Both the position numbers and the translations under genes were made by a program. This document shows positions 7,226 to 61,536 of a stretch of DNA of 64,000 nucleotides, in pieces (within the stretch, counting starts at the first letter, position 1; each line of letters opens with the position of its first letter). Location: assembly GCF_963921235.1 (NCBI RefSeq), contig NC_086108.1, forward strand, positions 25,916,001 through 25,980,000, written 5' to 3'. Origin of the DNA: Mobula hypostoma (lineage: Eukaryota). The notes beneath the pieces are model-generated. The model made no database searches. It had not been told where the DNA came from and saw nothing but the letters and a program-made list of their open reading frames with translations.

Positions 7226-7865
7226 CCCTGGCAACAAAGTATACAGGTGTTTTGCTGTGCTTTATTTTCACCTGATAATGTGAACTGAAAATTAAATTTA
7301 CAGTCTGAGAGAAGCTTGTAGTGATTAATAAACATGAATACAGTGAGACCTCTCTGAACGTTTGTTTCTAAGTTACATAAGAGATCTGATAGGAGGCACA
7401 TCAGATTCGCTGAAGGGACCAACTCCAATTGAATTAAAAGCATAACTTAGCCAATCACAACACTGGTTCTTTCCTCAAAATAATAATTCAGAGAACTCTT
7501 GCTTTGACGGCTCAACTTTTGCTTTTCTGGCTTTTATAAAGGAAACAGCTCAGAAGCAAAATGGGGGTGTGCACTCATTAAGGTGGAGCAGCACATAGCT
7601 GTGCAATCATCCCCAAGAGTGAGATCGAGGAAGCTGGATTTGTGTTTTAATCACTCTTCAATAGTTTGTGTGGGATTAGATTTCTTCACAGATATTTATT
7701 TCTTATTCACCACTGTCACAGTTCAGAGGGGACAACTAAGAGGCTGAGGCATTGCACTGTTGATTCTTATTTTAAATGTGGATGTTAATATAGTCTACAC
7801 GTAAAGACACACATCAAAGTTGCTGGTGAACGCAACAGGCTAAGCAGCATCTCTAGGAAGAGGTA

Positions 7866-7903
7866 CAGTCGACGTTTCAGGCCGAGACCCTTCGTCAGGA
7901 CTA
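7866..7903 (-). ncRNA. Minimal type-I hammerhead ribozyme motif (opposite-strand copy)
   Basis: The reverse complement of cagtcgacgtttcaggccgagacccttcgtcaggacta is identical to the 8072-8109 motif. Confidence 0.7.
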
Positions 7904-8071
7904 ACTGAAGAAAGAGCTAGTAAGAGATTTAAGAGACACTGAAGAAGTTTAAATCTTCTCTTTGACGGGAGTTCAGTGAAACCATCTCTCACTGCTCCCC
8001 ATCTGGAATTTCTTCAGCTATCTCCCCCTCCCCCTCCCACTTTTAAATCTCTTACTAGCTCTTTCTTCAGT

Positions 8072-8109
8072 TAGTCCTGACGAAGGGTCTCGGCCTGAAA
8101 CGTCGACTG
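8072..8109 (+). ncRNA. Minimal type-I hammerhead ribozyme motif
   Basis: uaguc-CUGACGA-agggucucggccu-GAAA-C-GUC/gacug: complete core, helix I (aguc:gacu), helix II, palindromic ACGU in place of helix III, predicted cleavage after 8104. Confidence 0.7.
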
Positions 8110-8402
8110 TACCTCTTCCTAGAGATGCTGCCTGGCCTGCTGCGTTCACCAGCAACTTTGATGTGTGTTGCTTGAATTTCCAGCATCTGTAGAATTCCTT
8201 GTGTCCACACATAAAGATGCTGTTGCTACATTGAGTGAAGAGGTGGATGATGAAATGCAGGACACACTATTTAATTACCTCTGTTTCAATAACATACGCC
8301 TTTCCTCATCTTAAGAATGCTACTTTCTTCCCTTTAGAGAAATTAAGAGATCCAGAATTCAATATTATGTTATGTATATGCCAACAAGGTTTGGAGACTT
8401 CC

Positions 8403-8582
8403 AACACACGCTAAATGCCAGAAGAACTCAGCAGGTCAGGCAACATCTATGAAAATGAATAAGCAGTTCAATGACTGTTTAGTTTATTCATTTCCATTGA
8501 TGCTGCCTGAGCTGTTGAGTTCCCCCAGCTTTTTGTATGCATTGCTCTGGATTTCCAGCATTTGCAAAATCCCTTGTGTTTT
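8403..8582. mobile_element. Palindromic Penelope-derived element, ribozyme core deleted
   Basis: aactcagcaggtcaggcaacatc...gatgctgcctgagctgttgagtt arms and a ccagcatttgca tail. Confidence 0.65.
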
Positions 8583-10195: not shown

Positions 10196-10830
10196 GGGAT
10201 TGTGAAACGGGCCCAGCAGAGATTGTACTTTCTGAGGAAGCTTAAACAAGCATCACTCCCCACTAACATCTTAACTACATTCTATAGAGGCGTGGTTGAG
10301 AGTGTGCTAACCTTCTGCATCACAACCTGGTACTCCAGCTGCAGTGCTGTCGACAAAAAAGCCTTGCAGAGGGTGGTTAGGGGAGCAGAGAAGGTTATTG
10401 GGGTCTCCCTACCTTCTGTCCAAGACCTCTTTCAGAGTCCATGCCTCCAGAAGACACGGTACATCATTAAAGACCCCTCACACCGTCTCCATGAACTGTT
10501 TGTTCTTCTGCCATCAGCCAAACGTTACAGGAGCATCAAAACTAAAACCACAAGGCTACTAAACAGCTTCCTCCCACAGGCAGTCAGACTGCTAAATTGC
10601 TGCTCCACCTGACTCTGCTTTGGACACTTTTAACTTGCACTGGACACTTATAACTGATTTTAACTGACATGTGGCTGTTGTGTTTTACTATTTATTGTTA
10701 TGTTTATTATTTTGTGTTGCGTTTGTTATGTTATGATTGCACTGTCCCTGAGAAACGCTCTCTCATTCTGCCCTGCAGAGCTGATGTACGGTTAGAATGA
10801 CAATAAAGTTTTTTGAATCTTTGAATCTTT
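10196..10830 (+). mobile_element. Rex1/Babar LINE 3' fragment inserted in the Gypsy element
   Basis: ORF 10202..10612 KRAQQRLYFLRKLK...SFLPQAVRLLN (C-terminal domain), then aataaa and a (ttgaatct)n tail. Confidence 0.88.
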
Positions 10831-12010
10831 GAAAATCATCTGCATCACCATGGACGTGTCTGGTGTAAGCCTGAAAATAGATGTGGATACAGGGTTACCT
10901 TTGTTCATAATTTCAGAGGCTGACTACATCAGACTGTTTTCTGTGATGCCATTAGAGAACACCTCAGTGATGCTGAAGACTTACATGGGTGAAGAAGTGT
11001 CTACCAATGGCAAACTGAAAGTAAATGTAATGTATGGAGGGCAAACTCAACAGTCAGAGCTTTATGTATTAAAAAGTGGAGGGCCAGCACTTTTCGGACA
11101 TGAGTTGTTGAGAAAAATCCAACTAGACTGGCACTCAGTCAAAGCTCTCAGTGTGACATCAACAGGCAATGGCAGCCCAAATGGTAGCACTAACCAGAGA
11201 TTGTCACAGCTGCTTAATGCTAATGAGAAGGTGTTTGAGAAGGGAATAGATAAACAGATCGAAGACTTTGCCAAAGGCTGTTCGGAATGCCAAACAAATT
11301 CAAAATGCACCCCTACAGGCACTGTACACTCTTGGGAGTGGCAATCTTCACCATGGCAATAAGTACATATTGACTTTGCTAGGCCATTCATGGTCTCCGT
11401 GTTTCTGATTGCAGTGGGTGCTCATTCGAACTGCCCAGAGGTTATATCAATGATGTCAACCACCCTAGCAAAGACTGTCTCTGCTCTGAGGATGATCTTT
11501 GCCAGAAGCAGCTTACCAGAACGAATTGTGAATGACAACAGACCCCAATACACATCAGAAGAATTCTGACTGTTCATGATGAGAAATGGCATCAGACATT
11601 TCAAGTCAGCTCCCCACCAACCAGTTAGCTGAAAGGTTTATCCAAAATCTTCAAGAAGCCCATTAAAGTGATGGACAAGAAGGACATTCATCTACAGCGC
11701 AAGGTGGACAACTGCCTTTTTGTCTATCAGAACTCTGTTCACGCGATGACAAATCAAAAACCTGCAATGCTGTTCGTAAGCAAGAATCTGAGATCTTGCA
11801 TAGACCTCCTGAAACCAGACCTCCGGAGGGAAGTACAAAATGTTCAGCCAGTTGCCAAGTGAAGCAGCAAGGAGCTTTGAGATTGGACAGGAAGTCCTAG
11901 CGCATGATTAACGAGAAGAAGCGTGGACACCAGTAGGATAGCTACAAGAACTGGACCATTGATTTACACAGTGGATGTTGGAGATCAGACATGGAGACAT
12001 GAAGTCATCA
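10829..12010 (+). pseudogene. Gypsy aspartic protease fused to integrase remnant
   Basis: IDVDTG protease motif, then GIDKQIEDFAKGCSECQ (zinc-finger end), PWQ*VHIDFARPF and RIVNDNRPQYTSEEF (integrase core). Confidence 0.88.
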
Positions 12011-12527: not shown

Positions 12528-15095
12528 GAATAGGAATAGGAAGTATGTTCTGTACTGGGTGTCAGATGTGGATGTCCTGGAGACTCCCAGCCTCCTGGAC
12601 AGCCACATCTGCACCAGGTACATCCAGCTGCAGCTCCTTAGGGACTGGGTTAGGGAACTGGAGATGCAGCTTGATGGCCATCATCTGATCAGTGCAAGTG
12701 AGAGGCTGTAGGCAAGTAGTCACACCGGGGCCTTGGTGGACAGATAAGTGGGAAACAGTCAGGAGAGGGAAGGGCAAGAATCAGATACTAGAAAGAACCC
12801 CAGTGACTGTTCCCCTTAACAATAAGTACTCCTGTTTGAGTACTGTTGGGAGGGACAACCTGCCTTGGGGAAGCAACAGTGGCTGTGTCTCTGGCACAGA
12901 GTCTGGCCCTGTGGCTCAGAAGGGTAGGGAAAGGAAGAGGATGGCAGCAGTGATAGGGGACTCTATAGTTAGGGGGGCAGACAGGCAATTCTGTTGTCAC
13001 ACGAAAGAAACATGGATGGTAGTTTGCCTCGCAGGTGTCAGGGTCCGGGATGTTTCTGATCGCATCCACGATATCCTGAAGTGGGAAGGCGAACAGCCAG
13101 AGGTCATGGTACATATTGATACCAATGACATAGGTGGGAAAAGGGAGGAGGTCCTGAAAACAGACTATAGGGGGTTAGGAAAGAAGCTGAGAAGCAGGAC
13201 CTCAAAGGTAATAATCTTGTGCCTCGAGACAGTGAGTATAGGAATAGAATGAGGTGGAGGATAAATGAGCGGCTGAGAGATTGGAGCAGGGGGCAGGGAT
13301 TCAGATTTCTGGATCATTATGACCTCTTTTGGGGCAGGAGTGACCTGTCCAAAAAGGACAGGTTGCACTTGAATCCGAGGGGGACCAATATCCTAGCAGC
13401 AAGGTTTGCTAACACTATTGGGGAGAGCTTAAAGTAGAAACGCAGGGGAGTGGGAGCCAAACTGAAGAGGTGGAGGAAGGGGCGGTTAACTCACAAATCA
13501 AGAAAGCTTTTAGGCAGTGTGAGAGGGAGGATAGGTAGGTGATAGAGAAGGGATACGTTCAGACTGATGGTTTGAGGTGTGTGTATTTTAATGCAAGGAG
13601 TATCAGGAAGAAAGCAGATGAGCTTAGAGCGTGGGTCAGAACTTGGAGGTATGATGTTGTGGCCATTATAGAGACTTGGATGGCTCAGGGGCGGGAATGG
13701 CTACTTAGGGTGCCAGGCTTTAGATGTTTCAGAAAGGACAGAGATGGGAGGAAAAAGAGGTGGGGGCGTGGGACTGCTGATCAGAGATAGTGTCACGGCT
13801 GCAGAAAAGGAGGAAGTCATGGAGGGATTGTCTACTGAGTCTCTGTGGGTGGAAGTTAGGCACAGAAAGGGGTCAATAACTTTACTGGGTATTTTTTATA
13901 GACCAACCAATAGTAACAGGGACATCGAGGAGCAGATAAGGGGACAGATTCTGGAACAGTGCAATAATAACAGGATTGTCATGGTGGGAGATTTTAATTT
14001 CCCCAATATTGATTGGCATCTCCCTAGAGCAAGGGGTTTAGATGGGGAGGAACACTCACAACACGCTGGAGGAACTCAGCAGGTCAGGCAGCATCCGTGG
14101 AAAAGATCGGTCACCGTTTCGGGCCAGAACCCTTCGTCAGGACTCAGTCCTGACGAAGGGTTCCGGCCCGAAATATCAACCGATCTTTTCCATGGATGCT
14201 GCCCGACCTGCTGAGTTCCTCCAGCGTGTTGTGAGTGTTGCTTTGATCCCAGCATCTGCAGGTTATTTTGTGTTTAGATGGGGAGGAGTTTGTTAGGTGT
14301 GTTCAGGAAGATTTCCTGACACAATATGTCAATAAGCCTATAAGAGGAGAGGCTGTATTTGATCTGGTATTGGGAAATGAACCTGGTCAGGTGTCAGGTC
14401 TCTCAGTGGGAGAGCATTGTGTAAATAGTGATCACAATTCTATCTCCTTTACCATAGCATTGGAGAGGGATAGAAGCAGACAAGTTAGGAAAGCTTTTAA
14501 TTGGAGTCAGGGGAAATATGAAGCTATCAGGCAGGAACTTGAGAGCATGAACAGGGAACAGATATTCTCAAGGAAATGTATGGCAGAAATGTGGCAAATG
14601 TTCGGGGGCTATTTGTGTGGTATTCTGCATAGGTAAATTCCAATGAGACAGGGAAAGGTTTAGGGTGCAGGAACCATGGTGTACAAAGGCTGTTGAAAAT
14701 CTAGTCAAGAAGAAATGAAGAGCTTACAAAAGGTTCAAAAAACTAGCTAATGATAGAGATCTAGAAAATTATAAAGCTAGCAGGAAGGAGTTTAAGAATG
14801 AAATTAGAAGAGCCAGAAGGGGCCATGAGAAGGCCTTAGCGAGCAGGATTAAGGAAAACCTCAAGGCATTCTACAAGTATGTGAAGAGCAAGAGGATAAG
14901 ACGTGAGAGAACAGGACCAATCAAGTGTGACAGTGGAAAAGTATGTATGGAATAGGAGGAGATAGCGGAGGTACTTAATGAATACTTTGCTTCAGTATTC
15001 ACTACGGAAAAGGACCTTGGTGATTGTTGGGATGACTTACAATGAACTGGAAAGCTTGAGCATATAGACATTAAGAAAGAAGAGGTGCTAGAGTT
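12528..15095 (+). mobile_element. CR1 LINE 5' half: ORF1 (zinc finger plus SGNH esterase) and ORF2 APE endonuclease
   Basis: ORF1 CTGCQMW...HICTR, VIGDSIVRG and VHIDTNDIG. ORF2 YFNARSI, VAIIETW, GDFNFP and SDHN motifs. Confidence 0.92.
14052..14271. mobile_element. 220-bp palindromic Penelope-derived element with two back-to-back hammerhead-like cores
   Basis: Arms of ~95 bp centred near 14145. Perfect 16-bp TSD gtttagatggggagga (14036-14051 and 14272-14287) interrupting CR1 ORF2. Confidence 0.85.
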
Positions 15096-25805: not shown

Positions 25806-25890
25806 GGATTTTTCTATCATCCGTGTGCCTACCTAAGAATTTCCTGAGTGCCCTTAATACAATAAGGCACACATTCTACGATTCAGGAAC

Positions 25891-28720
25891 TGTCATTGTC
25901 CGGATCGGGGTCCCTTTAAATTTACCTTGTTTATGTTATGATCCGGACCGTTGATTCCCTGATTTCCCGTGACCCTCAGCTTTGGTGATTAGAGGCAATT
26001 AACGCTCGGCTGAATCGGTAGTTTATAATCTCCGTCTTTCAGCCGTTCGGCGCGCGAGTGTCTGAAAAGTCATCAAAAGTAAAATCTGCCAATGTCATCT
26101 GGCCGAAGCAAACCTAGTCTCTGCCGAAGCGAGTGCCGGTAATTCACCCTTCCTCACCAGAGCAACCCTGTCCAGTTACCTCTCTGAAGCGAGCCTGCAA
26201 AGTTTCCTCATCAAGGTGAGTCCGTCAGTTAACCCGCCGGAGAGAATCAGGAGCCGCTGTCTACTGTTCCTGGGCCGAGTCTGGAGCTCGGCGCTACCCA
26301 GAGGTTCCAAGCACCACGTCCTGGCTCTGGCGGCGTCCAAGTACGACGTCCGCGTCCTGGCTCCGGCGGCGTCCAAGTACCACGTCCACGTCCTGGCCCC
26401 GGCGGCATCCAAGTACCACATCCAGGTCCAAGTCCTGGCCCTGGCGGCATCTGAGTACCAAGTCAAGTCCTGGCCCTGGTGGTCTGTGATTCCTGTCCTA
26501 CCCTCCCTGTCTGAATCCCTTCTCTGCCACTCTCACCTCTAGCCCTCATCTGTAGCCCTCGCCTGCACCTCGGTCTAGTTCTATCGCTGGAGCTAGATAG
26601 GAACTGTGTTGTTCTTTGGTGTTTGTCTTGTCTTGTCCTCGCCTCCGTGGGGTAAGTCAGGCCGTCTTGCTGTTGCCCCGTGGGGGGTCATGTCTTGTCA
26701 TGTCTTGTCCTCACCTCCGTGGGGTAAATCAGGCCGTCTTGCCGTTGCCCCGCGGAGTCTCATGAGTCCCGGCCCTATGTCCTGTACCCAAGGAAGGGTC
26801 CCGACTCTGTGTTCTGTGTATGTGTTCATGGTTCCATGTACCTAATCTCCCCAGACCGAGGCTCTGTTTTCCATGTTCCTCCTCTCCCTAGCCCATATCA
26901 TGTCCATGCCTGGTTCTGGGGTCCGAGCCCGAGGAAAGACCCAGGTACTGGGTCCTTGCCCCATCTCGGGCTCGGAATCTATAGCCTAGCCTCTTCATGT
27001 CTCCTGTAGTTCTGGGAGCCGATTCCGAGTCCAAGCCCAGACCCTTGGTCCCAGCCTAGTCATAGTCCTGATCCTGTTCGCTATTCCTGCTTCTGCTTTG
27101 CTCTCCTGGTATCGAACAATAAACTAAATCTAATTAACCTCACAAGATGTGTCTTGCATTTGGGTTCACACTTGCACCCAATGCTCCCACCATTGTGACA
27201 GAACGCGCTTGCCAAACATGGACCCAGCAGACACAAACTGTTTTTCCAAACTCCTGTCAGCCTGAAAGTCAAGGTGTTGTTCTGTTTTGCCCACTGGCCA
27301 AATCCTCCTCCACCCACCCAGGTCATTGATAATACAGGGAAATCTGTTGGTCGCCTGGAGGCTCCCATTGGGAGGGGGGTACCGTCATGGTCCGGATCAG
27401 GGTCCCTTTAAATTTACCTTGTTTATGTTACGATCCGGACCGTTGATTCCTTGTTTTCCCGTGTCCCTTGGCTTCGGTGATTAGAGGCAATTAATGCTCG
27501 GCTGAACTGGTAGTTTATAGTCTCCGGCTTTCAGCCATTCGACGCGAAAGTGTCTGCAAAGTCATTAAACGTACGGTGTGCCGATGTCATCTGGCCGGAG
27601 CAAACTTAGTCTCTGCCGAAGCGAGTGCTGGTAATTTGCCCTTCCTCACCAGAGCAACCCTGTCCAGTTACCTCGCCGAAGCGAGCCTGCAAAGTTTCCT
27701 CATCAAGGTGGGTCCTTCAGTTAACCCGTCGGAGAGAATCAGGAGCCGCTGTCTACTGCTCCTGGGCCGAGTCTAGAGCTCGCCACTACCCGGAGGTTCC
27801 ATGTACCACGTCCTGGCTCCGGTGGCATCCAAGTACCACGTCCACGTCCAAGTCCTGGCCCTGGTGGCATCCGAGTACAAAGTGAAGTCCTGTCCCTGGC
27901 AGCATCCGAGTACCAAGTCAAGTCCTGGCCCTGGCGTTCTGTGATTCCTGTCCTACCCCACTGTCTGAAACCCTTCTCTGCCCCTCTCACCTCTAGCCCT
28001 CGCCTGTACCTCGGTCTAGTTCTATTGCTGGAGCTAGATAGGAACTGTGTTGTTCTTTGGTGTTTGTATTGTCTTGTCCTCGCCTCCGTGGGGTAAGTCA
28101 GGCTGTCTTGCCGTTGCTCCACGGGGGGTCATGTCTTGTCTTGTCTTGTCCTTGCCTCCGTGGGGTAAGTCAGGCTGTCTTGCCGTTGCTCCGCGGGGGG
28201 TCCTGTCTTGTCTTGTCTAGTCCTCGCCTCTGTGGGGTAAGTCAGGCCGTCTTGCCGTTGCCCCGCGCAGGGTCATGAGTCCCGGCCCTATGTCCTGTAC
28301 CCAAGGAGGGGTCCCAGCTCTCTGTTCTGTGTATGTGTCCATGGTTCCATGTACCTGCTCTCCCGAGACCGAGGCTCTGTCTTCCATATTCCTCCTCTCC
28401 CTAGCCCATGTCATGTCCATGTCTGGTTCCGGGGTCCGAGCCCGAGGCAAGACCCAGGTACTGGGTCCTTGCCCAGTCTCGGGCTCGGAGTCCATACCCT
28501 AGCCTCTTCATGTCTCCTCTAGTTCTGGGAGCTGATTCGGAGACCAAGCCCAGACCCTTGGTCCCAGCCTAGTCGTAGTCCTGAGTCCTTATCCTGTTCG
28601 CTATTCCTGCTTCTGCTTTGCTCTCCTGGTATCGAACAATAAACTATATCTAGTTAACCTCACAAGATGTGTCTTGCATTTGGATCCACCCTTGCTCCCA
28701 ATGCCCCCACCATTGTGACA
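25891..28720 (+). mobile_element. Non-autonomous Tf1/sushi-type LTR element: two ~1.3-kb LTRs and a 182-bp internal region
   Basis: LTR1 25891-27200 (TG...CA) and LTR2 27383-28720. TSD ggaac at 25886-90 and 28721-25. PPT gggaggggggt. Gag start MDPADT. Inserted in a Rex1 3' fragment (ttcaggaac|agcttcttcc). Confidence 0.92.
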
Positions 28721-29610: not shown

Positions 29611-31403
29611 GGTCAATTATACAGATTATAAATATAGCACCTGATGGAATCTGGAGTTGGCTGCATACACAGAGATTGGAGGAAAATTGAATAGGTGTGC
29701 ATGAAGGCTACCACAGAACTTTGAGTATCAGATGCATCAGATTAAGACAGTCAAAGTGGTAAGTTTACAGTAAATTTCTGGTGGGGTGGGCCAAGCAGAG
29801 TCTTCTGATAGTCATCCACCTTCTCCCTTTGCGTGCTACAAGATTCTGGAACTGTCTCTAGCAGAATCCTGGAATGGATATGCAGCCATGTTTAAGGCAG
29901 GGAATGATATTCACAGCAACTTTTAAACCACCAAATCTTGTTATGGAATAAGGAAAGAGACTGCCACTAGCTCAAGGAAAAACCTAAAGTTCTTGAGAGA
30001 AAGTTTGCCACTTTGTTGGGTCCACTTGTCCACTATACGCCCTGAGTGGTGCATGCGGCCTTTCACAATCTGTGCCATGCCATTGAAGCTCCTCTCCTTT
30101 GCAGCTGGAGGTTTTTGTCCGGGCTCTTCCTTGTGCTTCTGTGGTTTTCCACAGTGTCCTTGCTGTCACAGTATCACTTGTATCTGCATAGATATGGAGG
30201 CTGTAATCTGGAGCAAGATTCAGCAGATCAGGCAGCATCCATGGTACAAAATGGACTGTTGGCACTTAAAGTTAAGACCCTTCATCTGGTCTAGTGTTCC
30301 TTCAGTGTTTTAATATGCCACTCTGCATAGATATGGCTCCTGAAAGTCAGAAGTGCACTTCATAAATGGTCAATCTAAACTTCGAAATTTGCAAACGTAA
30401 TTTTTAAAACTTATTTCCAAGTTTTTACAAAGTGTGCTCTTAGTTTCTCAAAGCAACCCACGCCATCATTTCTGTGAACATAACCTTTCACAGAGTCACT
30501 CAAGAAAGCATCTGTAAGGTTGGAGCACAAATTAATGGATATGCTTGCCAAATCATCAGCCCCCTCCAATCTTGCACTGTGAACATGTTGAAGTTGGGAG
30601 AATTGTTTGCCTGCAGAGTGAAGTGCCTCAACACATTGTCATTTTTAATTCCCTTTATCTCGGAGATATTTCTGTACCCACTTGCCCCGAAACCTAAAAG
30701 GAGCTTTGAAAGCACCTACAGGAGGTTTTGCCTCAAGATGGCAGCTTCTATCGTCAAGGATTCACACCATCTGACTATGCCCCTTTCTTACAGCTATCAC
30801 TGAACAAGAAGTACAGATCTTGATCCCTAGTCCTACACCATTGAGTTCAGGAACAGCTACTTTCCTACAACTATCCGACTCTTGAACCAACCTGTACCAC
30901 TCTAATCCTACCTTTGCAATGGAACACTAGGAACCATCTCTTGCACTACCATGGACTTGCCACTTTGGATATTTTTTGCACTAAACTCTTACTCTGCACT
31001 ATCATATTTTTCTTCACTGTCTAGCATAGTCTACTTATAATTTATACATAAATGTGTAAGTGTATTGAACATACTTGCTGTAGATAAGTTTTTCATTGCA
31101 GCTGAACCTCAGTGTATTTCGACACATTACAATAAACTTAACTTGGTTTCTTGATCCTGTCTGCGTGGAGTATGGGGTTCATCTGAGACCTCCACTTTCC
31201 ACTCACGTTCTGAGAGGAGTAAAATTGGCCTCTGTGTATTACCCAGCGTAGGTTCATGGCAAAGCAATCAAAAGAAGAGTCAAGACATATGTGTGTAAGA
31301 GAAAATGTCGTGGAGAATACAGAGAAATTAGGAGAGAATATTTGGACTAATGGGACTTCTCTAGTACCTCATGGGTTTGATTGTTTCAACCTATGTTGAA
31401 ATA

Positions 31404-36749: not shown

Positions 36750-39555
36750 TGGGGCATGGCACTTGATCAGAGATAGCGTCTCTGGGAGTTAGATATGGCC
36801 CTTGTGGCTAAAGGGATCAGGGGATATGGAGGGAAGGCTGGTACAGGGTTCTGAGTTGGATGATCAGCCATGATCATACTGAATGGCAGTGCAGGCTCGA
36901 AGGGCTGAATGGCCTACTCCTGCACCTATTTTCTATGTTTCTATGTTTCTATGTGTCACGGCTGCAGAAAATGAGGAAGTCTCCGTGGGTGGAAGTTAGG
37001 AACAGGAAGGAGTCAATAACCCTACTGGGCATTTTTTATAGACCACCCAATAGTAACAGGAACATGGAGGAACAGATAGAGAGACAGATTCTGGAAAGGA
37101 GTAATAATAACTGAGTTGTTGTGGTGAGAGATATAAATTTCCCAAATATTGATTGGCATCTCCCTAGAGTGAGGGGTTTAGATGGGGTAGGTGTGTTCAG
37201 GAAGGTTTCTTGACACAATATGTAGATAAGCCTACAAGAGGAGAGGCTGTACTTGATCTGGTATTGGGAAATGAATCTGGTCAGGTGTCAGATCTCTCAG
37301 TGGGAGAGCATTTTGGAGACAGTGATCACAATTCTATCTCCTTTACCATAGCATTGGAGAGGGATAGGGATACACAAGTTAGGGAATCGTTTAATTGGAG
37401 TAAGGGAAACACTGAGGCTATCAGGCAGGAACTTGGAGGCATAAATTGGAAACAGATGTTCTCAGGGAAATGTACCGAAGAAATGCGGCAAATGTTCAGG
37501 GGATATTTGCGTGTGGTTCTGCAGAGGTACATTCCAATGAGACAGGGAAAGGATGGTATGGTACAAGATCCGTGGTGCACAAAGGCTGTTGTAAATCTAG
37601 TCAAGAAGAAAAGAAGACCTTACAAAAGGTTCAAAAAACTAGGTAATGATATGAATCTATAAGATTAAAAGGCTTGCAGGAAGGAACTTAAGAATGAAAT
37701 TAGGAGAGCCAGAAGGGGCCATGAGAAAGCCTTGGCAGACAGGGTTAAGGAAAACTCCAAGGCATTCGACAAATATGTGAAGAGCAAGAGGATAAGAAGT
37801 AAGAGAATAAGACCAATCAAGTGTGACAATGGAAAAGTGTATATGAAACCGGAGGAAATAGCGGAGGTACTTAATGAATACTTTGATTCAGTATTCATTA
37901 CAGAAAAGGATATTGGCAATTGTAGGGATGACTTGCAGTGGACTGAAAAGCTTGAGAATGTACATATTAAGAAAAAGGATGTGCTGGAGCCTTTGGAAAG
38001 CATCAAGTTGGATAAGTCACTGGGACCAGACGGGATGTACCCCATGAGGGAAGTGAGGGAGGAGATTGCTGAGCCTCTGACAATGATCTTTGCACCATCA
38101 ATGACAGGAGAGGTTCCAGAGGATTGGAGGGTTGCGGATGTTGCTCCCTTATTCAAGAAAGGGAGTAGAGATATCCCAGGAAATTTTAGACCAATAAGTC
38201 ATACTTCAGTGTTTGGTAAGCTGATGGAGAAGATCCTGAGAGGCAGGATTTATGAAAATTTGGAGAGGCATAATATGATTAGGAATAGTCAGCATGGCTT
38301 TGTGAAACTCAGATTATGCCTTACGAGCCTGATTGAATTTTTTGAGGATGTGACTAAACACATTGGTGAAGGTAGAGCCGTAGATGCAGTTATATAGATT
38401 TGATAAGGTACTCCATGCAAGGCTTATTGCAAAAGTAATGAGGCGTGGGATCCAAGGGGACATTGCTTTGTGGATCTAGAACTGGCTTTCCCACAGAAGG
38501 CAAAGAATGATTGTAGGTGAGTCATATTCTGCATGGAGGACGGTGACCACTGGTGTGCCTCAGGGATCTGTTCTGGGACTACTACACTTTGTGATTTTTA
38601 TAAATGACCTGGATGAGGAAGTGGAGGGTTGGGTTAGTAAATTTGCTGATGACACAAAGGTTGGGTGTGTTGTGGATAGTGTGGAGGACTGTCAAAGGTT
38701 ACAACGGGACATTGATAGGATGCAAAACTGGGCTGAGAAGTGGCAGATGGAGTTCAACCCAGATTAGTATGAAGTGGTTCATTTTGGTAGGTCAAATATG
38801 ATGGCAGAATATAGTATTAATGGTAAGACTCTTGGCAGTGTGGAAGGTCAGAGTGATCTTGGGGTCCGAGTCCATAGGACACTCAAAGCTGCTACGCAGG
38901 TTGACTCTGTGGTTAAGAAGGCATACGGTGTATTGGCCTTTATCAATTGTGGGACTGAGTTTAAGAGCCGAAAGATAATGTTGCAGCTATATAGGACCCT
39001 GGTCAGACCACACTTGGAGTATTGTGTTCATTTCTGGTCGCCTCACTATAGGAAGGATGTGGAAACCATAGAAAGGGTGCAGAGGAGATTTACAAGGATG
39101 TTGCCTGGATTGGGGGGCATGCCTTATGACAATAGGTTGAGTGAACTCAGCCTTTTTTCCTTGGAGCAACGAAGGATGAGAGGTGACCTGATAGAGGTGT
39201 ACAAGATAATGAGAGGCATTGATTGTGTGGATAGTCAGAGGCTTTTCCCCAGGGCTGAATTGGCTAGCACGAGAGGGCATAGTTTTAAGGTGCTTGGAAT
39301 TAGGTACAGAGAAGATGTCAGGGGTAAGTTTTTTATGCAGAGAGGGATGAGTGCGTGGAATGGGCTGCCGGCAGTGGTGGTAGAGGCAGAAACGATAGGG
39401 TCTTTTAAGAGACTCCTGGATGGCTGCATGGAGCTTAGAAGAACAGAGGGCTATGGGTAAAGCCTAGGTAGTTCTAAGGTAGGGACATGTTTGGCACAGC
39501 ATTGTATGCCAAAGGGCCTGTATTGTGTTGTATGTTTTCTATGTTTCTATGTTTC
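36750..39555 (+). mobile_element. CR1 LINE ORF2 (endonuclease end, RT, 3' UTR); a second CR1 3' end is nested at 36781-36953
   Basis: GVPQGSVLG, KFADDTK and LVRPHLEYC motifs, (tttctatg)n tail. It splits a minus-strand Rex1 tail (36660-36750 and 39555-40170). Confidence 0.93.
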
Positions 39556-43315: not shown

Positions 43316-44456
43316 AAAATATTACTGACATTCACACATTAGCATTAAACGGTTTTTTTTGTGTTTGAGCTCAGAGCCTTTAGAAAATTCAACAGGCAAA
43401 AGCTGAAAACTCTCACAAATGAGGCTGAATTGTTTGTGTTCATATAGCACTGCATGACAGATTGGGGTGAGCTTATTTTGAGACAAATGACGGTCCTTGG
43501 AAGATTATTAAATTTATAGTTCCATCTAAAATGTATCTCACAGTGAGTTGATAGTTCTATTGAAATTATTATTGCATCCTAATTTCTCACAAAGTGTAAC
43601 CCACTGCAAGTTGTCTTTGACCACTTGGAATGTAATTCAATGATGCTTTTATGAGAAATTTATTAAATCTCTCCCATATTTGACACTGGAAGGGGAGAGA
43701 GCTGTAGTTTATAAGGAATGTATCAAAAACATAGTGGGGATCAGGTAGGGAGAGAGGAGCATGAAACAGCCTTAGAATAAAAGAAAATCTAAATTTATAA
43801 TTGCTCATGACAAGTGGAGTTTTGCTTGAAGTAAGAACTCCCATCAAAGAGGATAATAGAGTCAAGGGGCAGTGTGGCCTGGTCAGTCCTATGCCCCATT
43901 AGCGTCTGGGATAGTGTGAACGATATTCAAGCTATAGCTAGTAACAACATTTTGAAATATAAGGAATATGATGGATGTCCTTGCACCAATGACTACATTG
44001 AGATTACCGTAATCTGTTGCTCTCAGGTATTTCATCACAGAATAAGAAATTCCTCTTTATTGATTTACAGATCATCTGCACAGATGGTGGTAATTAGTAG
44101 CTTGTAAGCACAGGTAGGCCGGGGAGATAAGAACATTGTTGCTCTGGTCAGATTGCCGTTCCTTCCTATGTATTTGTTTAAACCAGAGGAAATTATTTCA
44201 ATTTCATTTTGTTCCTGTTGGAGTTTATTTTCCTCTGTACGTTGAATGATATTTTGAGAATGATAGACAGTTGCAATGTTTGCATAAGTATAAAATGCAC
44301 ATTCCAATGAATGACTTCTGAGAGTCTGCAAAAAAACTCAGCAGAAAATGTTCTGTAGCAAGAAAACTGTAATAAAGCTGTTGTCTCTTTTCCAGTATCA
44401 GATGAAGGGATCAAACACAGTTTCATGCATTTTTTTAAAGAGTCCAGTGATACAGG

Positions 44457-45168: not shown

Positions 45169-45394
45169 CAGATAAAGGTAAAGAATGTTGAGTGCAGATT
45201 AACTGTGAGTGTCAGTTCTGAGACATACATCCAATCCCAGAGTAGGTGCCACGGTAGTGTAGCAGACAGTATGATGCTATTACAGCACAGGTTGTTTCGG
45301 AGTTAAATAACGATGCTGTTCTGTAGAGAGTATCTCCTCCCTGTGATTGGTTAATAGCTCAATTGTAAATTGTCCTGTGATTAGGTAAGGGTAA

Positions 45395-45560
45395 CAAACA
45401 AGAGGAAATATGCAGATGGAATCCAAAGCTAGGCTCACAAAATGCTGGAGGAACTCAGCAGGCCAGGCATCTTCTGTGGAAAAGGGTCCTGACGAAGGGT
45501 TTCTGCTTTTCCATAGCTGCTGCCTGGCCTGCTGAGTTCCTCCAGCACTATGTGTGCATT
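45395..45560. mobile_element. Palindromic Penelope-derived element inside a SINE remnant
   Basis: gctggaggaactcagcaggccaggca...gtcctgacgaaggg...tgcctggcctgctgagttcctccagc. Confidence 0.7.
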
Positions 45561-47823
45561 GCTTAGGTTAGATGTAATCGAGTTTGCCGGGGGTTGTTGT
45601 ATTGCGAAATAAATAAAGAAATAAATAACTCTACCAAGTAAGTAAGCTTTTTTCACTGCAAAAGGTATGAGCAAACACTATGGCCATGGAAGTAAATACA
45701 ATAGAGACGTTTAATGAATTTCAGCAATACCCAGGAATGGAAGGATATTGAGCATGTGCAAGCACAAGGAATCAGTTTAATTAGGCATCATTAGCTTAAT
45801 TGATTCAGCACAAAATTGTAGACCAAAGGACCTGTTTCTTTGCTCGATGTTGTATGGTTTATGTTCTGGCTCTGAAGCACAAGTCTCATAAATGAACCCA
45901 GTTGAATAATGCTTTACTCTTATTTGATATGAACCTAGTGCAGTACTTTTTACATTGTAAAGTGTTGTTGAGTGACATTTCATCAGATGTTGTTCTAATA
46001 TTTCACTCATGTCATTTATCTTGTTGAACTCTTAATGGCAAAATGATAGGAAGATGGGTAAGAATTTGCATATTGTCAATAAAGCTGATGAATGATCCCA
46101 TTTGCAGTTCACAATAACAGGTTTCACATGTTGAGTTATGATGAGCAGGGTCAGAAATGAATCTCTTATTGGTTGTATGTCTCAGAACTAACACTTTCAT
46201 CTTGTCAGTTAAACTGCACTAAACATTCTTTACCTTTATCTGTATCATGGGGCTCTTAAACGAAATGCATGAAACTGTGTTTGATCCCTTCATCTGATAC
46301 TGGAAAAGAGACAATAGCTCAAATATGGTTTTCTTGCTACAGAACATTTGCCGCTCAGACTCTCAGAAGTCATTCATTGGAATGTGCATTTTATATTTAT
46401 GCAAACATTTTGACTGTCCATCACCCTCCAGATATCATTCAACATACAGAGAAAAATAAACTCTAACAGGAAAAAAATGAAATGGAAATAATTTCCTCTG
46501 GGTTTATACAAATATGTAGGAAGGAATGCCAATCTGACCACAACAGTGCTCTTATCTCCCCAGCCTACCTATGTTTGCAGCAAGCTACTAATTACCACAA
46601 TGAATTTCTTATTCTGGGGTGGATCCAGTAGCACTTACATCAACAGTGATGGAGTGTTTTGAGGGGTTGATGATGAAATATGTCAACTCCTGCCTGAGAA
46701 GCAACTTGGATCCGCTCCAATTTGCTTACTGGAGCAACAGGTCCCCAGCAGATACCATCTCGTTGGCTTTTTATTTACTCCTGGAACATCTAGACAGCAA
46801 AGGTGCATAAATTAGAATGTTTTTTATGGACTAAAGCTTGACATTCAATACCATTATCTGCTCAAAACTAATCAATAAGCTTCAAGACTTTGGCCTCAAT
46901 AAATCCTTGTTCAATTGGATCCTCAATTTCCTCACTTGCAGAACACAGCCTGTTCAGATTGGCAATAACATCTCCTCTACAATCTCCATCGCCATTAGCA
47001 CATGCACACCATGAGGTTGTGTGTTTAGCCCCCTGCCTTACTCACTTTATACTTAGGACTGTGTGGCAAAGTGCAGCTCCAATACCATATTCAAGTTTGC
47101 TGATGACACTACTGTCATTGACGGAATCAAAGGTGGTGATGAATCAGCATACAGGAGGGAGATTGAAAATCTGGCTGCATAGTGCCACAGCAACAACCTC
47201 TTACTCAATATCATCAAGACCAAGGAGCTGATTATTGACTTCAGGAGGAGGAAACCAGAGGTCCATGAGCTAGTCCTTATTGAAGGATCAGAGGTGGAGA
47301 GCATCAGCAACGTTAAATTCCTCAGTGTTATCATTTCAGAGGACTTGTCCTGGGACCAGCATTTAAGTGCAATTACAAAGAAAGCACGGCAGTGTCTCTA
47401 CTTTTTTAGGAGTTTGCAAGGAATTGGCATGACATCTAAAGTTTTGACAAACTTCTAAATAAGAGTGATGAAGAATATATTGACTGGCTGCATCACAATC
47501 TGGTATGGAAACACCAATACTTTTGAATAGAAAATTCTACAAAAAGTAGTGTATGTGGTTCAGCCATCGCAGATAAAGCCCTCCCCACCATTGATTATGT
47601 CTACATGAAGTGTTGCAGAAAAGCAGCATCTATCATCAGGGACCCCCACCACTCAGGTCATGCTCTCTTCTTACTACTGCCAACAGAAAGAAGGTACAAG
47701 AGCTACAGGATTCACACTGCTAGGTTCAGGTACATTTTTTATCCCTCAACCATCAGGCTTTTGAACCAAAGAGGATAGCTTCACTCAACTTTACTAGTCC
47801 CATCACTGAACTTTTCCCATGGG

Positions 47824-58090: not shown

Positions 58091-60194
58091 ATATTTAACT
58101 GAAATGACAAGCAGTTAATGAGGGAAAAGTTGATTGGACAAGCAATTAATACTGGAAGTTGCACCGTACCCAGACACCTTTCTAGTAATATGATGGTGAG
58201 GTGTCTCGTGTGCTAATGTCAACGTCTGCCTGAGAGATGAACATGCTGCTTGATACTGATGATGTGACAAAGATGAGCAGTTGAGTGATTACATGATCTT
58301 GAAATTGTCAATGGAAAGAATTCACATGGGGTTCAGGGTTTACCTTTAGAACAAACTTTCTATATTACAAGCACATGTCAACAGTGGACTGACTATTCCT
58401 GGAACCAGTACTCACTGATCCAAAGTTTCCATTATTCTTCCATTATTTCTTATCTATTTTCCCCCTTTAGCTCTACCCTGCATGTCTTGTATAAGCGGAG
58501 AGTAAGGTAAGCTTTTTGCTGTGTTAGGTTTCATGAGTTGTCAAGCTTCTGTGCAGTTCCACCTTATATGCACTATGGCAAGTTTCTGTACCATAGTTTA
58601 TGGGACAGATGATAGGTTGGTAACTAGGCATGGATTTACTATAGTTCAGCCTGTAATATGTAGTTTGGGTTGGCTTGAACTCATTTCAGTTACCACTCTC
58701 TGGAACCAATCCTGCAGAGTCCCCCTTCAGCTGTCAGCCTGATCCCTACTACAGAGCTACAGAACCATTTCACTACTCCCTGTTACAAAAGGATGGCTCT
58801 GTTTGCCTTGTTGCACCCAAGAGAGGGTTGTGGAGTGCAGTTATGGATTCAATATCAAAGCCTGTAAGAGAACATCATCTTTTTGATGATAACATGTGTT
58901 GGTTGGGAGCCTGGTGGGGGTGTGCATGAAATTCATCTTGGCATACCTTTTAGGACATATAACATAGAATATTAAAGCACAGGAGCAGACTCTACCTACA
59001 AAATTGTGCTGAGCTAATTAAATTAGTAATCAATTGCCCAACTAAATTAATCTCTTCTGCCTAACATCCTTCACTGTTCACTACACCACCAGTTTGGGAG
59101 TTAACCTTTTCTACCCAGCTTGACCTACCCATCATCCTTCACTCTCCTCAATCCACCAGCCACCTCAGGCTTCCATCTCACCCACTCCCTCTCAGTCCTG
59201 AAGCAGGGTCTTGACCCAAAATGTCAACAGTTCCTCTCCCCACATATACTTTCTTCATTCAGATGCAAAATAAGCTATAACTGCAGAAATTTTGAAAACA
59301 TGTCTCCGTGACGAATAGAAAAAATCTTTCATGGATGGAAATGAGAAAATGTAAGAGTGGGTAGCTGATTCATTCAAGCAATAAAGCTCCTCAGATTGAT
59401 TGCAGCCATTTCAACATGAGAAAGCTTTTCCAGAATTACTTGTCCAATCCCCCATTTATGTATCTGCCTTATTGTAAACACACAGCTGGTGATGACTCAT
59501 CACAGTGCCATAACTCCCAGCTGCTAGCCATACTCTTGATTCTCTGTTCTTAGTGGCTCACATTAGAATAGTGCTACTTGTCATACTTTGAAACCTATAT
59601 TGACAGTGACCATGTCAATCTTAATATTTCCAAACTCTTTGCCATGTTGCACCCAGCTTGGCAAGAAGCTGATAGAGCCATATGGTCATTAAGTCAACAA
59701 GTCATAGAGTTATGGAGAGATGTAGCACAGAATCAGAATCAGAATCCGATTTATTATCAATAAGATGTTGTGAAGTTTGCTGCTTTTGTGACAGTAGTAC
59801 AGTATAATACATAAAAAATTACTCTAAATTACAATAAAAAGCACATAAAAAATAAATACGTAGTGCAAAAACAGCAAAATAGTGCAGTTGTGTTTATGGC
59901 TTCATCGACCGTTCAGGAATCTGATCGCAGAAGGATAAAGCTGTTCTGGAAATGCTGAATGCGTGCCAGTGAGAAGACGGCATGTCCTTGGTGGTCGAAT
60001 CCTTAATTATGCAGTTCTGATAAATCACTCAGGACAATGAGTCTATGCTGACCGTCAAACGCATATTTTACATAAATCCCATTTTATTCTCTTTACATTC
60101 TCTTTAAGTCCCTCATATCCTGTCATTCATTTACACTTGGGCAATTTGCAGTGGCCAAATGACCCATCAAACAGCATGTATTTGGTATTATATT

Positions 60195-60615
60195 GGTAGC
60201 CTCCAACATGATAGCATGAATATCGATTTCCTTTTCCTGTAAAAATGTTTTCCCTCCCCCTCCCATCTTCTTCTCTTCCCCATTCTGTCCTCCTACCTCT
60301 TCTCATCTGCCTGTCACCTCCTCCTTCTCATTCTTCTATGGTCTACTCTCCTCTCCTATCAAATTCCTTCACCTCCAGCCTCTTCCCTACCCACCTGGCT
60401 TTACCTATTCCTTCTAGCTATCCCCCCTCCCTTTCCCTTCCCTCACTTTTTTATTCTGGTGCCTTCCCCCTTTCTTTCTGGTCCTGAAGAAGGGTCTCAG
60501 CCCGAAATGTCGACTGTTTGTTCATTTCCATGGATGCTGTCTGATCTGCTGAGTTCCTCCAGCATTTTGTTTGTGTTGCTTTGGACTTGCAGCATCTGCA
60601 GAATTTTTTTGTGTT
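60195..60615 (+). mobile_element. Penelope 3' end with hammerhead motif, inserted in a minus-strand HE1 SINE
   Basis: GSLQHDSMNIDF (endonuclease end), pyrimidine tract, then gguc-CUGAAGA-agggucucagccc-GAAA-U-GUC/gacug at 60480-60516. Confidence 0.8.
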
Positions 60616-61536
60616 TACATATTTGGGATGTGGTAGGAAACCGGATCACCCGGAGGAAATCCATCCAGGGAGAATGCGCAAACACCACATAGACAGTGTA
60701 CGAGCTCTGAATTGACCATGAGTCTCTGGTGTTAGAAGGCAGTGACTCTACGAGCTGCCCACTACACTTTTAGAACTGAAACTCCAAAGCTCATTTCCTA
60801 TGTTATCTTGCAAAGCCTTGCCACTTCCCATGTTCTATCATTCAAAAAATAAGTTCTGACATGCAAGGACTCGCCACCATTTGTTTTATTGGTTCTCTCC
60901 TTCCAACCCTTGCACCCTGACCAACTCTTCATTAGGCAGAAGATACAAAAGTCTGAAAGCACATACCACCGAGCTCAAAGACGGCTTCTATCCCACCTTT
61001 TGAACAGTCGCCTGGTATGATGAAATGTGCACTTAACCTCACAATCTATGTACTTCATTGTTGCCTTACACTTTATTGCCTGCCTGCATTGCACATTCCC
61101 TGTTAAAAACGTCACTCTGCATTCCGCTATTGGCCCTCTTCGCACTTTCTCAGTGCATTGATGTGATGAAATCACCTGCATGGATGACATGCAAAACAAA
61201 AATACTTGCTGTATCTCCGTACAATAGACTATGATAAACCAATTTACCATATTTACCAATTTATTTTACAATCATCCTCAGTGTTTCTGCTTCAGATTCA
61301 GAATCAGAATCAAGTTTATTATCACCGGCATGTGATGTCAAATTTGTTAACTAAGCAGCAGCAGTTCAATTCAATACATAATTTAGCAGAGAAAAAAATA
61401 ATAAATAAAATAAAAATAATAATAATAAATAAACAGGTAAATTAATTGCATACATATTGAATCGATTTTTAAAAAAACATGCAAAAAGAGAAATACTGTA
61501 TATTAAAAAAAAGTGAGGTGGTGTCCAAAGACTCAC

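Follow-up and report, generated by a model that had tools for sequence, protein, structure and literature searches.

The 64-kb stretch of DNA analysed here, referred to as the window, carries on its plus strand a LINE fragment (13672-15093) whose APE endonuclease region (Pfam PF03372, E 1.6e-6; PF14529) is interrupted by a 220-bp insert at 14052-14271. We take this LINE to be CR1-like from its motifs, while Pfam gives only an APE-type LINE domain; the preliminary description, which had a CR1 ORF2 broken by the insert, is thus borne out for the interrupted endonuclease frame and the exact 16-bp duplication, with the CR1 assignment staying tentative. The duplication is perfect, as had been claimed: the plus-strand copies at 14036-14051 and 14272-14287 are identical; their score is 16, and none of 300 random flank pairs scored above 9. 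The left copy is native LINE sequence through which the LINE frame passes, and with the insert and one of the two 16-bp copies taken out the frame runs on past the site. Of the 32 contig pieces from public runs that were listed, 8 are LINE copies matching exactly from 14272 onwards, which indicates that the duplicated 16-mer is native to the LINE, and no contig bridging the junction of the tail and the target site duplication (TSD) was found among the 32 listed pieces of 121,894 (organisms A, B and C). The LINE paralog at 36978-37989 (86%) is without the insert; as 10 nt are deleted from it precisely at the insertion site, it offers no clean empty site. A weak OSK (SGNH-like) match at 12689-13249, which would suit an esterase-type LINE ORF1, sits immediately 5′ of the interrupted endonuclease frame.

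The insert itself is built of two opposed arms and a one-sided tail. The inverted, tail-less arm (14052-14144, minus strand) is a 5′-truncated terminal repeat of a Penelope-like element (PLE), and the direct arm (14146-14238, plus strand) consists of a hammerhead motif followed by ~57 nt of downstream terminal repeat. Both arms are 93 nt long, and 85 of the 93 positions are complementary and 8 mismatched, the inverted arm being 85/93 identical to the direct arm once reversed. They meet head to head in an odd palindrome, CTCAG (14143-14147), in which the C at 14145 is unpaired. The tail, 33 nt of unpaired sequence (14239-14271, plus strand), stands at the right end only. Together these measurements agree with the hairpin and ~30-nt unpaired tail first described from the letters. 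The earlier wording that the insert is little more than two hammerheads is right about the two opposed modules, which however account for only 72 of the 220 bp (33%). Microhomology is present at the junctions with the target: the first four bases of the TSD, GTTT, are also the end of the family's tail, and its last base is the inverted arm's next base. Folded as RNA, the insert reaches −178.7 kcal/mol (z −22.8; 0 of 200 shuffles equally good), and no promoter or ORF was found inside it.

We searched the window for relatives with a profile made from 12 arms, the seed arms of which match by construction. This gave 24 matches at 16 loci, 3-4 of them weak. Paired head-to-head arms are found at 8 of the 16 loci, at 2.9, 7.1, 7.9, 8.5, 14.1, 34.8, 36.2 and 45.5 kb, and two further loci, at 30.2 and 42.4 kb, are head-to-head by eye. 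Fold-back copy B (7808-8203, plus strand) has 129-nt arms (125/129) with 104 nt between them, two intact hammerheads, a tail and a TSD of 15 bp (13/15); it is younger and of a different subfamily, and ~45 nt of its inter-arm stretch matched nothing that we could assign. Copy C (8402-8579, plus strand) has no hammerhead core, a tail and a TSD of 11-15 bp, and in this old copy, the ends of which are approximate, both arms start near the nominal cleavage site, a GTCGAC palindrome. Copy D (45394-45564, minus strand) has its tail on the left and a TSD of ~12 bp (10/12), and its arms are unequal, as are those of copies E and F. An inverted repeat of ~270 bp (44180-44455 and 46240-46504, 87-90% complementary) surrounds the 1.8 kb that includes this 45.4-45.6 kb fold-back, and may be a TIR element. 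Elsewhere in the window, 25886-26922 and 27378-28435 form a tandem duplication of ~1.5 kb (85-91% alike) with GC-rich short repeats inside, and a frame at 10817-11359, which in Pfam resembles an aspartyl protease and the zinc-binding domain of an integrase weakly and below threshold, is possibly a decayed piece of an LTR retrotransposon.

The copies share a 3′ end. The tail of the insert also terminates copies at 8.2, 8.6, 33.0, 45.4 (reversed) and 60.6 kb, to the right or to the left according to orientation, and in copies A to D the ends of the tail-less arms agree within ~6 nt. The copies at 33.0 and 60.2-60.6 kb, which share this 3′ end, are single-armed and 5′-truncated; the latter is a long copy without an inverted arm (copy L, 60187-60616, plus strand). 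The direct arm matches the 60.5 kb copy at 79% and the 33 kb copy at 78%; what had been put forward as identity with the Penelope 3′ end at 60195-60615 thus amounts to 79% over 132 columns. TSDs were significant in 5 of 11 tested copies (16/16, 13/15, 14/15, 10/12 and 9/10) and none was significant in the other six, which are the older ones. A twelfth copy, reverse-oriented at 30183-30336, whose tail is shortened and whose inverted arm is very short, is bounded by an exact 15-bp repeat (15/15, at 30183 and 30322). Across these six copies detectable TSDs range from ~10 to 16 bp.

Short, non-coding and nearly all hairpin, the insert resembles a conventional MITE that depends on a DDE transposase, and in the preliminary description fixed short TSDs together with a matching transposase would have meant just that. 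The TSDs vary between ~10 and 16 bp, however; the inverted repeat is not terminal, with 33 nt beyond it on one side, left or right by orientation, and the single-armed, 5′-truncated copies with a common 3′ end (33.0 and 60.4 kb) stand equally against such an origin, which we consider next to impossible. The earlier suggestion of retrotransposition despite the MITE look is supported instead, given the one-sided tail, the long and variable TSD and the match to the published PLE pattern. Inserts of this kind are easily mis-annotated as MITEs or as ribozyme RNAs.

The same repeat family is very abundant in the public contigs of three organisms. Contigs placed on the right arm and LINE flank number 44,089, 46,510 and 24,663, which are not copy numbers. 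Judging by the types of repeat, the host is probably a cartilaginous fish. The conserved motif of the family gave 0, 0 and 0 matches in viral, metagenome and prokaryotic genome contigs, and in the literature searched, most of it open-access, nothing relevant came up on a family named from sharks or rays or on a PLE derivative resembling a MITE.

Each arm carries one minimal hammerhead module, and the cores read as first reported, GAAAUAUC on the plus strand and GAAACGGU on the minus strand. The motif of the terminal repeat fits the min-HHR consensus in Fig. S3 of PMC4209133, and a scan of the window with Rfam at gathering scores matched 0 families; minimal hammerheads fall below those models. 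The plus-strand module (14146-14181) is a minimal type-I hammerhead with an intact core (CUGACGA, GAAA, AUC) and a nominal cut after 14177. All four pairs of stem II are present, and two of the four pairs of stem I, the core-proximal pair at the cut site being lost; the intact hammerheads at 7.9 and 8.1 kb have 4/4 pairs in stem I. The minus-strand module (14109-14144) is broken by a change of U16.1 to G. Of the eight positions at which the arms differ, seven are at CpG (7 of 18 CpG positions vs 1 of 75 others, p = 2e-5). When inserted, the arms were near-identical; CpG decay came later. In related contigs G makes up 78% (run X1) and 80% (run X5) of the depth at 14175 and 89% in both runs at 14178, with G at 14175 at 37% of depth in run X9, which has few contigs over 14175-14178; consensuses of loose-end contigs read GAAAC(G/A)TCGAC. 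Given the CpG placement of the arm differences and the G majority in related contigs, the AUAU of the plus core is most reasonably read as a decayed ACGU, a minority state that fits CpG decay. The hint in the preliminary description that AUAU is a functional variant that has been kept is not supported by this comparison, since the state is a minority one, CpG-derived and next to a lost stem I pair. A compensatory origin of AUAU was also considered and rejected, CpG decay explaining the change and the adjoining stem I pair being gone.

The arrangement of the two modules bears further on their activity. In every transcript of the insert one module is sense and the other antisense, and the two pair together. 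Freeing the hammerhead from the hairpin carries a penalty of 52.7 and 56.5 kcal/mol in silico, and the computed probability that core bases are unpaired inside the hairpin is below 0.001. Minimal hammerheads require a partner on the same strand and cleave poorly even so (PMC4209133). As the cores are buried, the modules damaged and a same-strand partner needed, no ribozyme activity is expected; both ribozymes are predicted to be decayed and locked within the hairpin, and self-cleavage is not expected. The idea that the two modules act as a dimer was ruled out, as they lie on opposite strands.

These results weigh on the first of the two readings offered earlier, a self-propagating, non-autonomous hairpin in which the 220-nt fold-back is transcribed, cut by its ribozymes and retroposed whole, keeping a fixed centre. 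Such a family would account for both arms ending at one place just outside the hammerheads, for the nearby turn of copy G and for the palindromic AUAU and NUH triplet retained by the plus core, and U-A-U cores do exist in min-HHR families of the coelacanth (PMC4209133, Fig. S3). The centre of the insert argues otherwise. The 19-mer that spans it occurs once in the 64-kb window, and the 14145 junction is found in 0 of the 7 other profile-paired loci there, these copies being of mixed age and from other subfamilies. In the public contigs there are at least three opposite-strand joints at three different places among the 15 of 17 joints listed, a view that does not take in 14145 itself. When run within these 64 kb, the comparison of hairpin centres proposed in the preliminary description shows variable junctions, with the qualification that copy G (36.2 kb) turns nearly where the insert does, but with a 7-nt spacer. 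The two arms of the insert are 91% alike and no more than 85% like any other arm, as those of copy B are 97% alike and no more than 71% like any other; in the older copies C, D, E and G arm-to-arm values are 73, 84, 49 and 58%, not clearly closer than to other copies. Furthermore, the pairing of sense with antisense modules means that a min-HHR dimer cannot form within the element, stem I of the plus module is broken, U16.1 of the minus module is lost and AUAU is in the minority among related contigs. With no shared junction in the window, arms most like each other and ribozymes predicted dead, we regard a propagating hairpin family as very improbable.

A shared centre would in any case not establish such a family by itself, since the arms tend to begin at the hammerhead edge and independent events could therefore reuse the same centre. 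In the six best-resolved fold-backs, judged by eye, 6 of the 12 arms begin within −7 to +2 of the first core base of the hammerhead, and adding four weaker fold-backs makes it 11 of 20, still a small sample; the 5′ end of the single-armed copy at 32.93 kb also lies at the hammerhead edge. In copies that keep upstream sequence (8.06 and 59.19 kb) a pyrimidine tract and AG, resembling a splice acceptor, come just before the hammerhead, and the 59.19 kb copy has CTCAG at the corresponding upstream place. The clustering could reflect a pause of the RT, microhomology at small palindromes or a defined short RNA. The last of these leads to a different account, in which a short RNA of ~130 nt, comprising hammerhead, downstream stem-loop and tail, is mobilised in trans by PLE proteins in the manner of a SINE and inserted head to head. 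The clustered ends, including that of the 32.93 kb copy, and the tract with AG at 8.06 and 59.19 kb speak for it; it is also in keeping with the intron of Drosophila virilis Penelope, which ends at helix I (PMC4209133), with the finding that pLTR sequences are enough to be mobilised in trans (PMC3846280) and with the derivation of retrozymes from pLTRs (10.64898/2026.07.22.740005). Against this, the clustered ends are ragged over ~9 nt and no common upstream exon or leader is found, other copies reach 37, ~110 and ~300 nt further upstream, into the end of the ORF, and an RT pause or palindrome microhomology would cluster the ends equally well; the copies sampled are few, and the old ones are hard to delimit. 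We consider this account unlikely, and give a similarly small chance to its more specific form, in which a defined short RNA arises either from a transcription start or through processing at the upstream site that resembles a splice acceptor, and is mobilised in trans by a PLE and paired head to head by double priming. Were it true, SINE-like units that depend on PLEs would form a class numbering hundreds of thousands of copies, of which the insert would be the cleanest form.

We propose instead that the insert very probably represents a one-off, dead-on-arrival insertion by an endonuclease-bearing Penelope-like retrotransposon of this very abundant family, which probably belongs to Neptune. 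The family shows the features of PLE insertions: a min-HHR in the terminal repeat, an inverted 5′-truncated copy placed head to head, a one-sided tail, and a variable TSD with a common 3′ end and variable 5′ truncation. This corresponds to the second reading of the preliminary description, a minimal product of Penelope inverted-end insertion, which fits the tail, the long and variable TSD, the microhomology and the variable junctions. In the sequence of events that we envisage, the RT-endonuclease of the element would cut both strands of the LINE with a stagger of 16 nt. One 3′-OH would prime at the outer RT start, the end of the tail, aided by pairing of GTTT with the target, and the 3′-OH of the other strand would prime at the inner RT start, 33 nt further in. 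Both cDNAs would then break off early, on reaching the hammerhead's 5′ edge after ~95-130 nt, and would be joined through the small palindrome CTCAG (14143-14147), with repair yielding the TSD. To our knowledge, the joining of two PLE cDNAs has so far had no experimental demonstration, and a genome rich in such inserts is well suited to counting junctions, tails and TSDs as a test of it. Within this scheme we lean towards two separately primed cDNAs as the source of the arms; that one cDNA folded back or primed itself is a real but lesser possibility. Snap-back of a cDNA, or self-priming on antisense RNA as proposed in PMC3846280, would leave the same arms as double priming. The hammerheads simply ride along with the terminal repeat, and the insert is not expected to move.

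The source element probably belongs to the Neptune clade, judging from a short peptide. In the copy at 60.19 kb the first ~15 codons resemble, by eye, the end of the Neptune GIY-YIG domain (compared with the rows of Fig. S2 in PMC8557442). Pfam and Atlas searches with the 21-30-aa frame at 60.15-60.24 kb gave no match, and a six-frame motif search of the whole window for a PLE RT or endonuclease returned three chance-looking matches, none of them PLE. No ORF for an RT or a GIY-YIG endonuclease could thus be connected with the repeat in the window, and its link to a PLE protein is weak.

The pattern is already in print (PMC3846280, PMC8557442, PMC11167929), and the insert is a further example of it. 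Indeed it reduces the published PLE unit, comprising an inverted 5′-truncated repeat, a direct repeat, a 30-40-bp tail and a TSD, to its smallest form. In Pen2a_Av of the rotifer Adineta vaga the inverted pLTR is 37 bp shorter than the direct ones, the tail is 31 bp, TSDs are 8-10 bp and palindromes occur at the inverted junctions (PMC3846280), and an inverted 5′-truncated copy with a one-sided tail of 30-40 bp is described for PLEs in general (PMC8557442). The insert follows both in having a head-to-head truncated repeat beside a direct repeat with a 30-40-bp tail at one end only, an inverted copy shorter by about the length of the tail, a palindrome at the junction and a single TSD around the unit. 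It differs from Pen2a_Av in that its parts are only 93 and 126 nt long and hold no ORF, in its TSD of 16 bp rather than 8-10 bp, and in belonging to a vertebrate host in which the copy number is very high. Inverted pLTRs and short extensions are also among the features that curators have been told to expect (PMC8969392).

The closest biochemical parallel is PAc, a Poseidon element of Anolis carolinensis, whose protein cuts and extends both target strands, with two RT starts bounding the tail and ribozyme cleavage dispensable (PMC11167929). By the scheme above, the insert would share with it the two RT starts bounding the tail and the cutting and extension of both target strands, and it has a hammerhead in the repeat as well, but PAc belongs to the Penelope/Poseidon clade, unlike the family of the insert, which is Neptune-like by a weak peptide resemblance. 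Joining of two cDNAs is not among the reactions reconstituted in PMC11167929.

As for the ribozyme, the terminal repeat resembles the min-HHRs of metazoan PLEs in its CUGANGA, the extra base before stem II, G10.1-C11.1 and GAAA, and likewise in the palindromic 15.2-16.2, the short stem I and the U-rich 5′ flank (PMC4209133), and departs from the consensus through the damaging changes in both modules of the insert. Pairs of min-HHRs on opposite strands, 100-700 bp apart, were noted earlier in the same work, and the supplement file searched has no shark or ray entry. Finally, the insert is like the non-LTR retrozymes in being short, non-coding, hammerhead-bearing and derived from the pLTR of a PLE (10.64898/2026.07.22.740005). 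In retrozymes the units follow one another head to tail, in tandem, each with a sense ribozyme, whereas the insert is head-to-head with its ribozyme buried; identity with a retrozyme, which needs the tandem arrangement and a sense hammerhead per unit, was rejected on these grounds.
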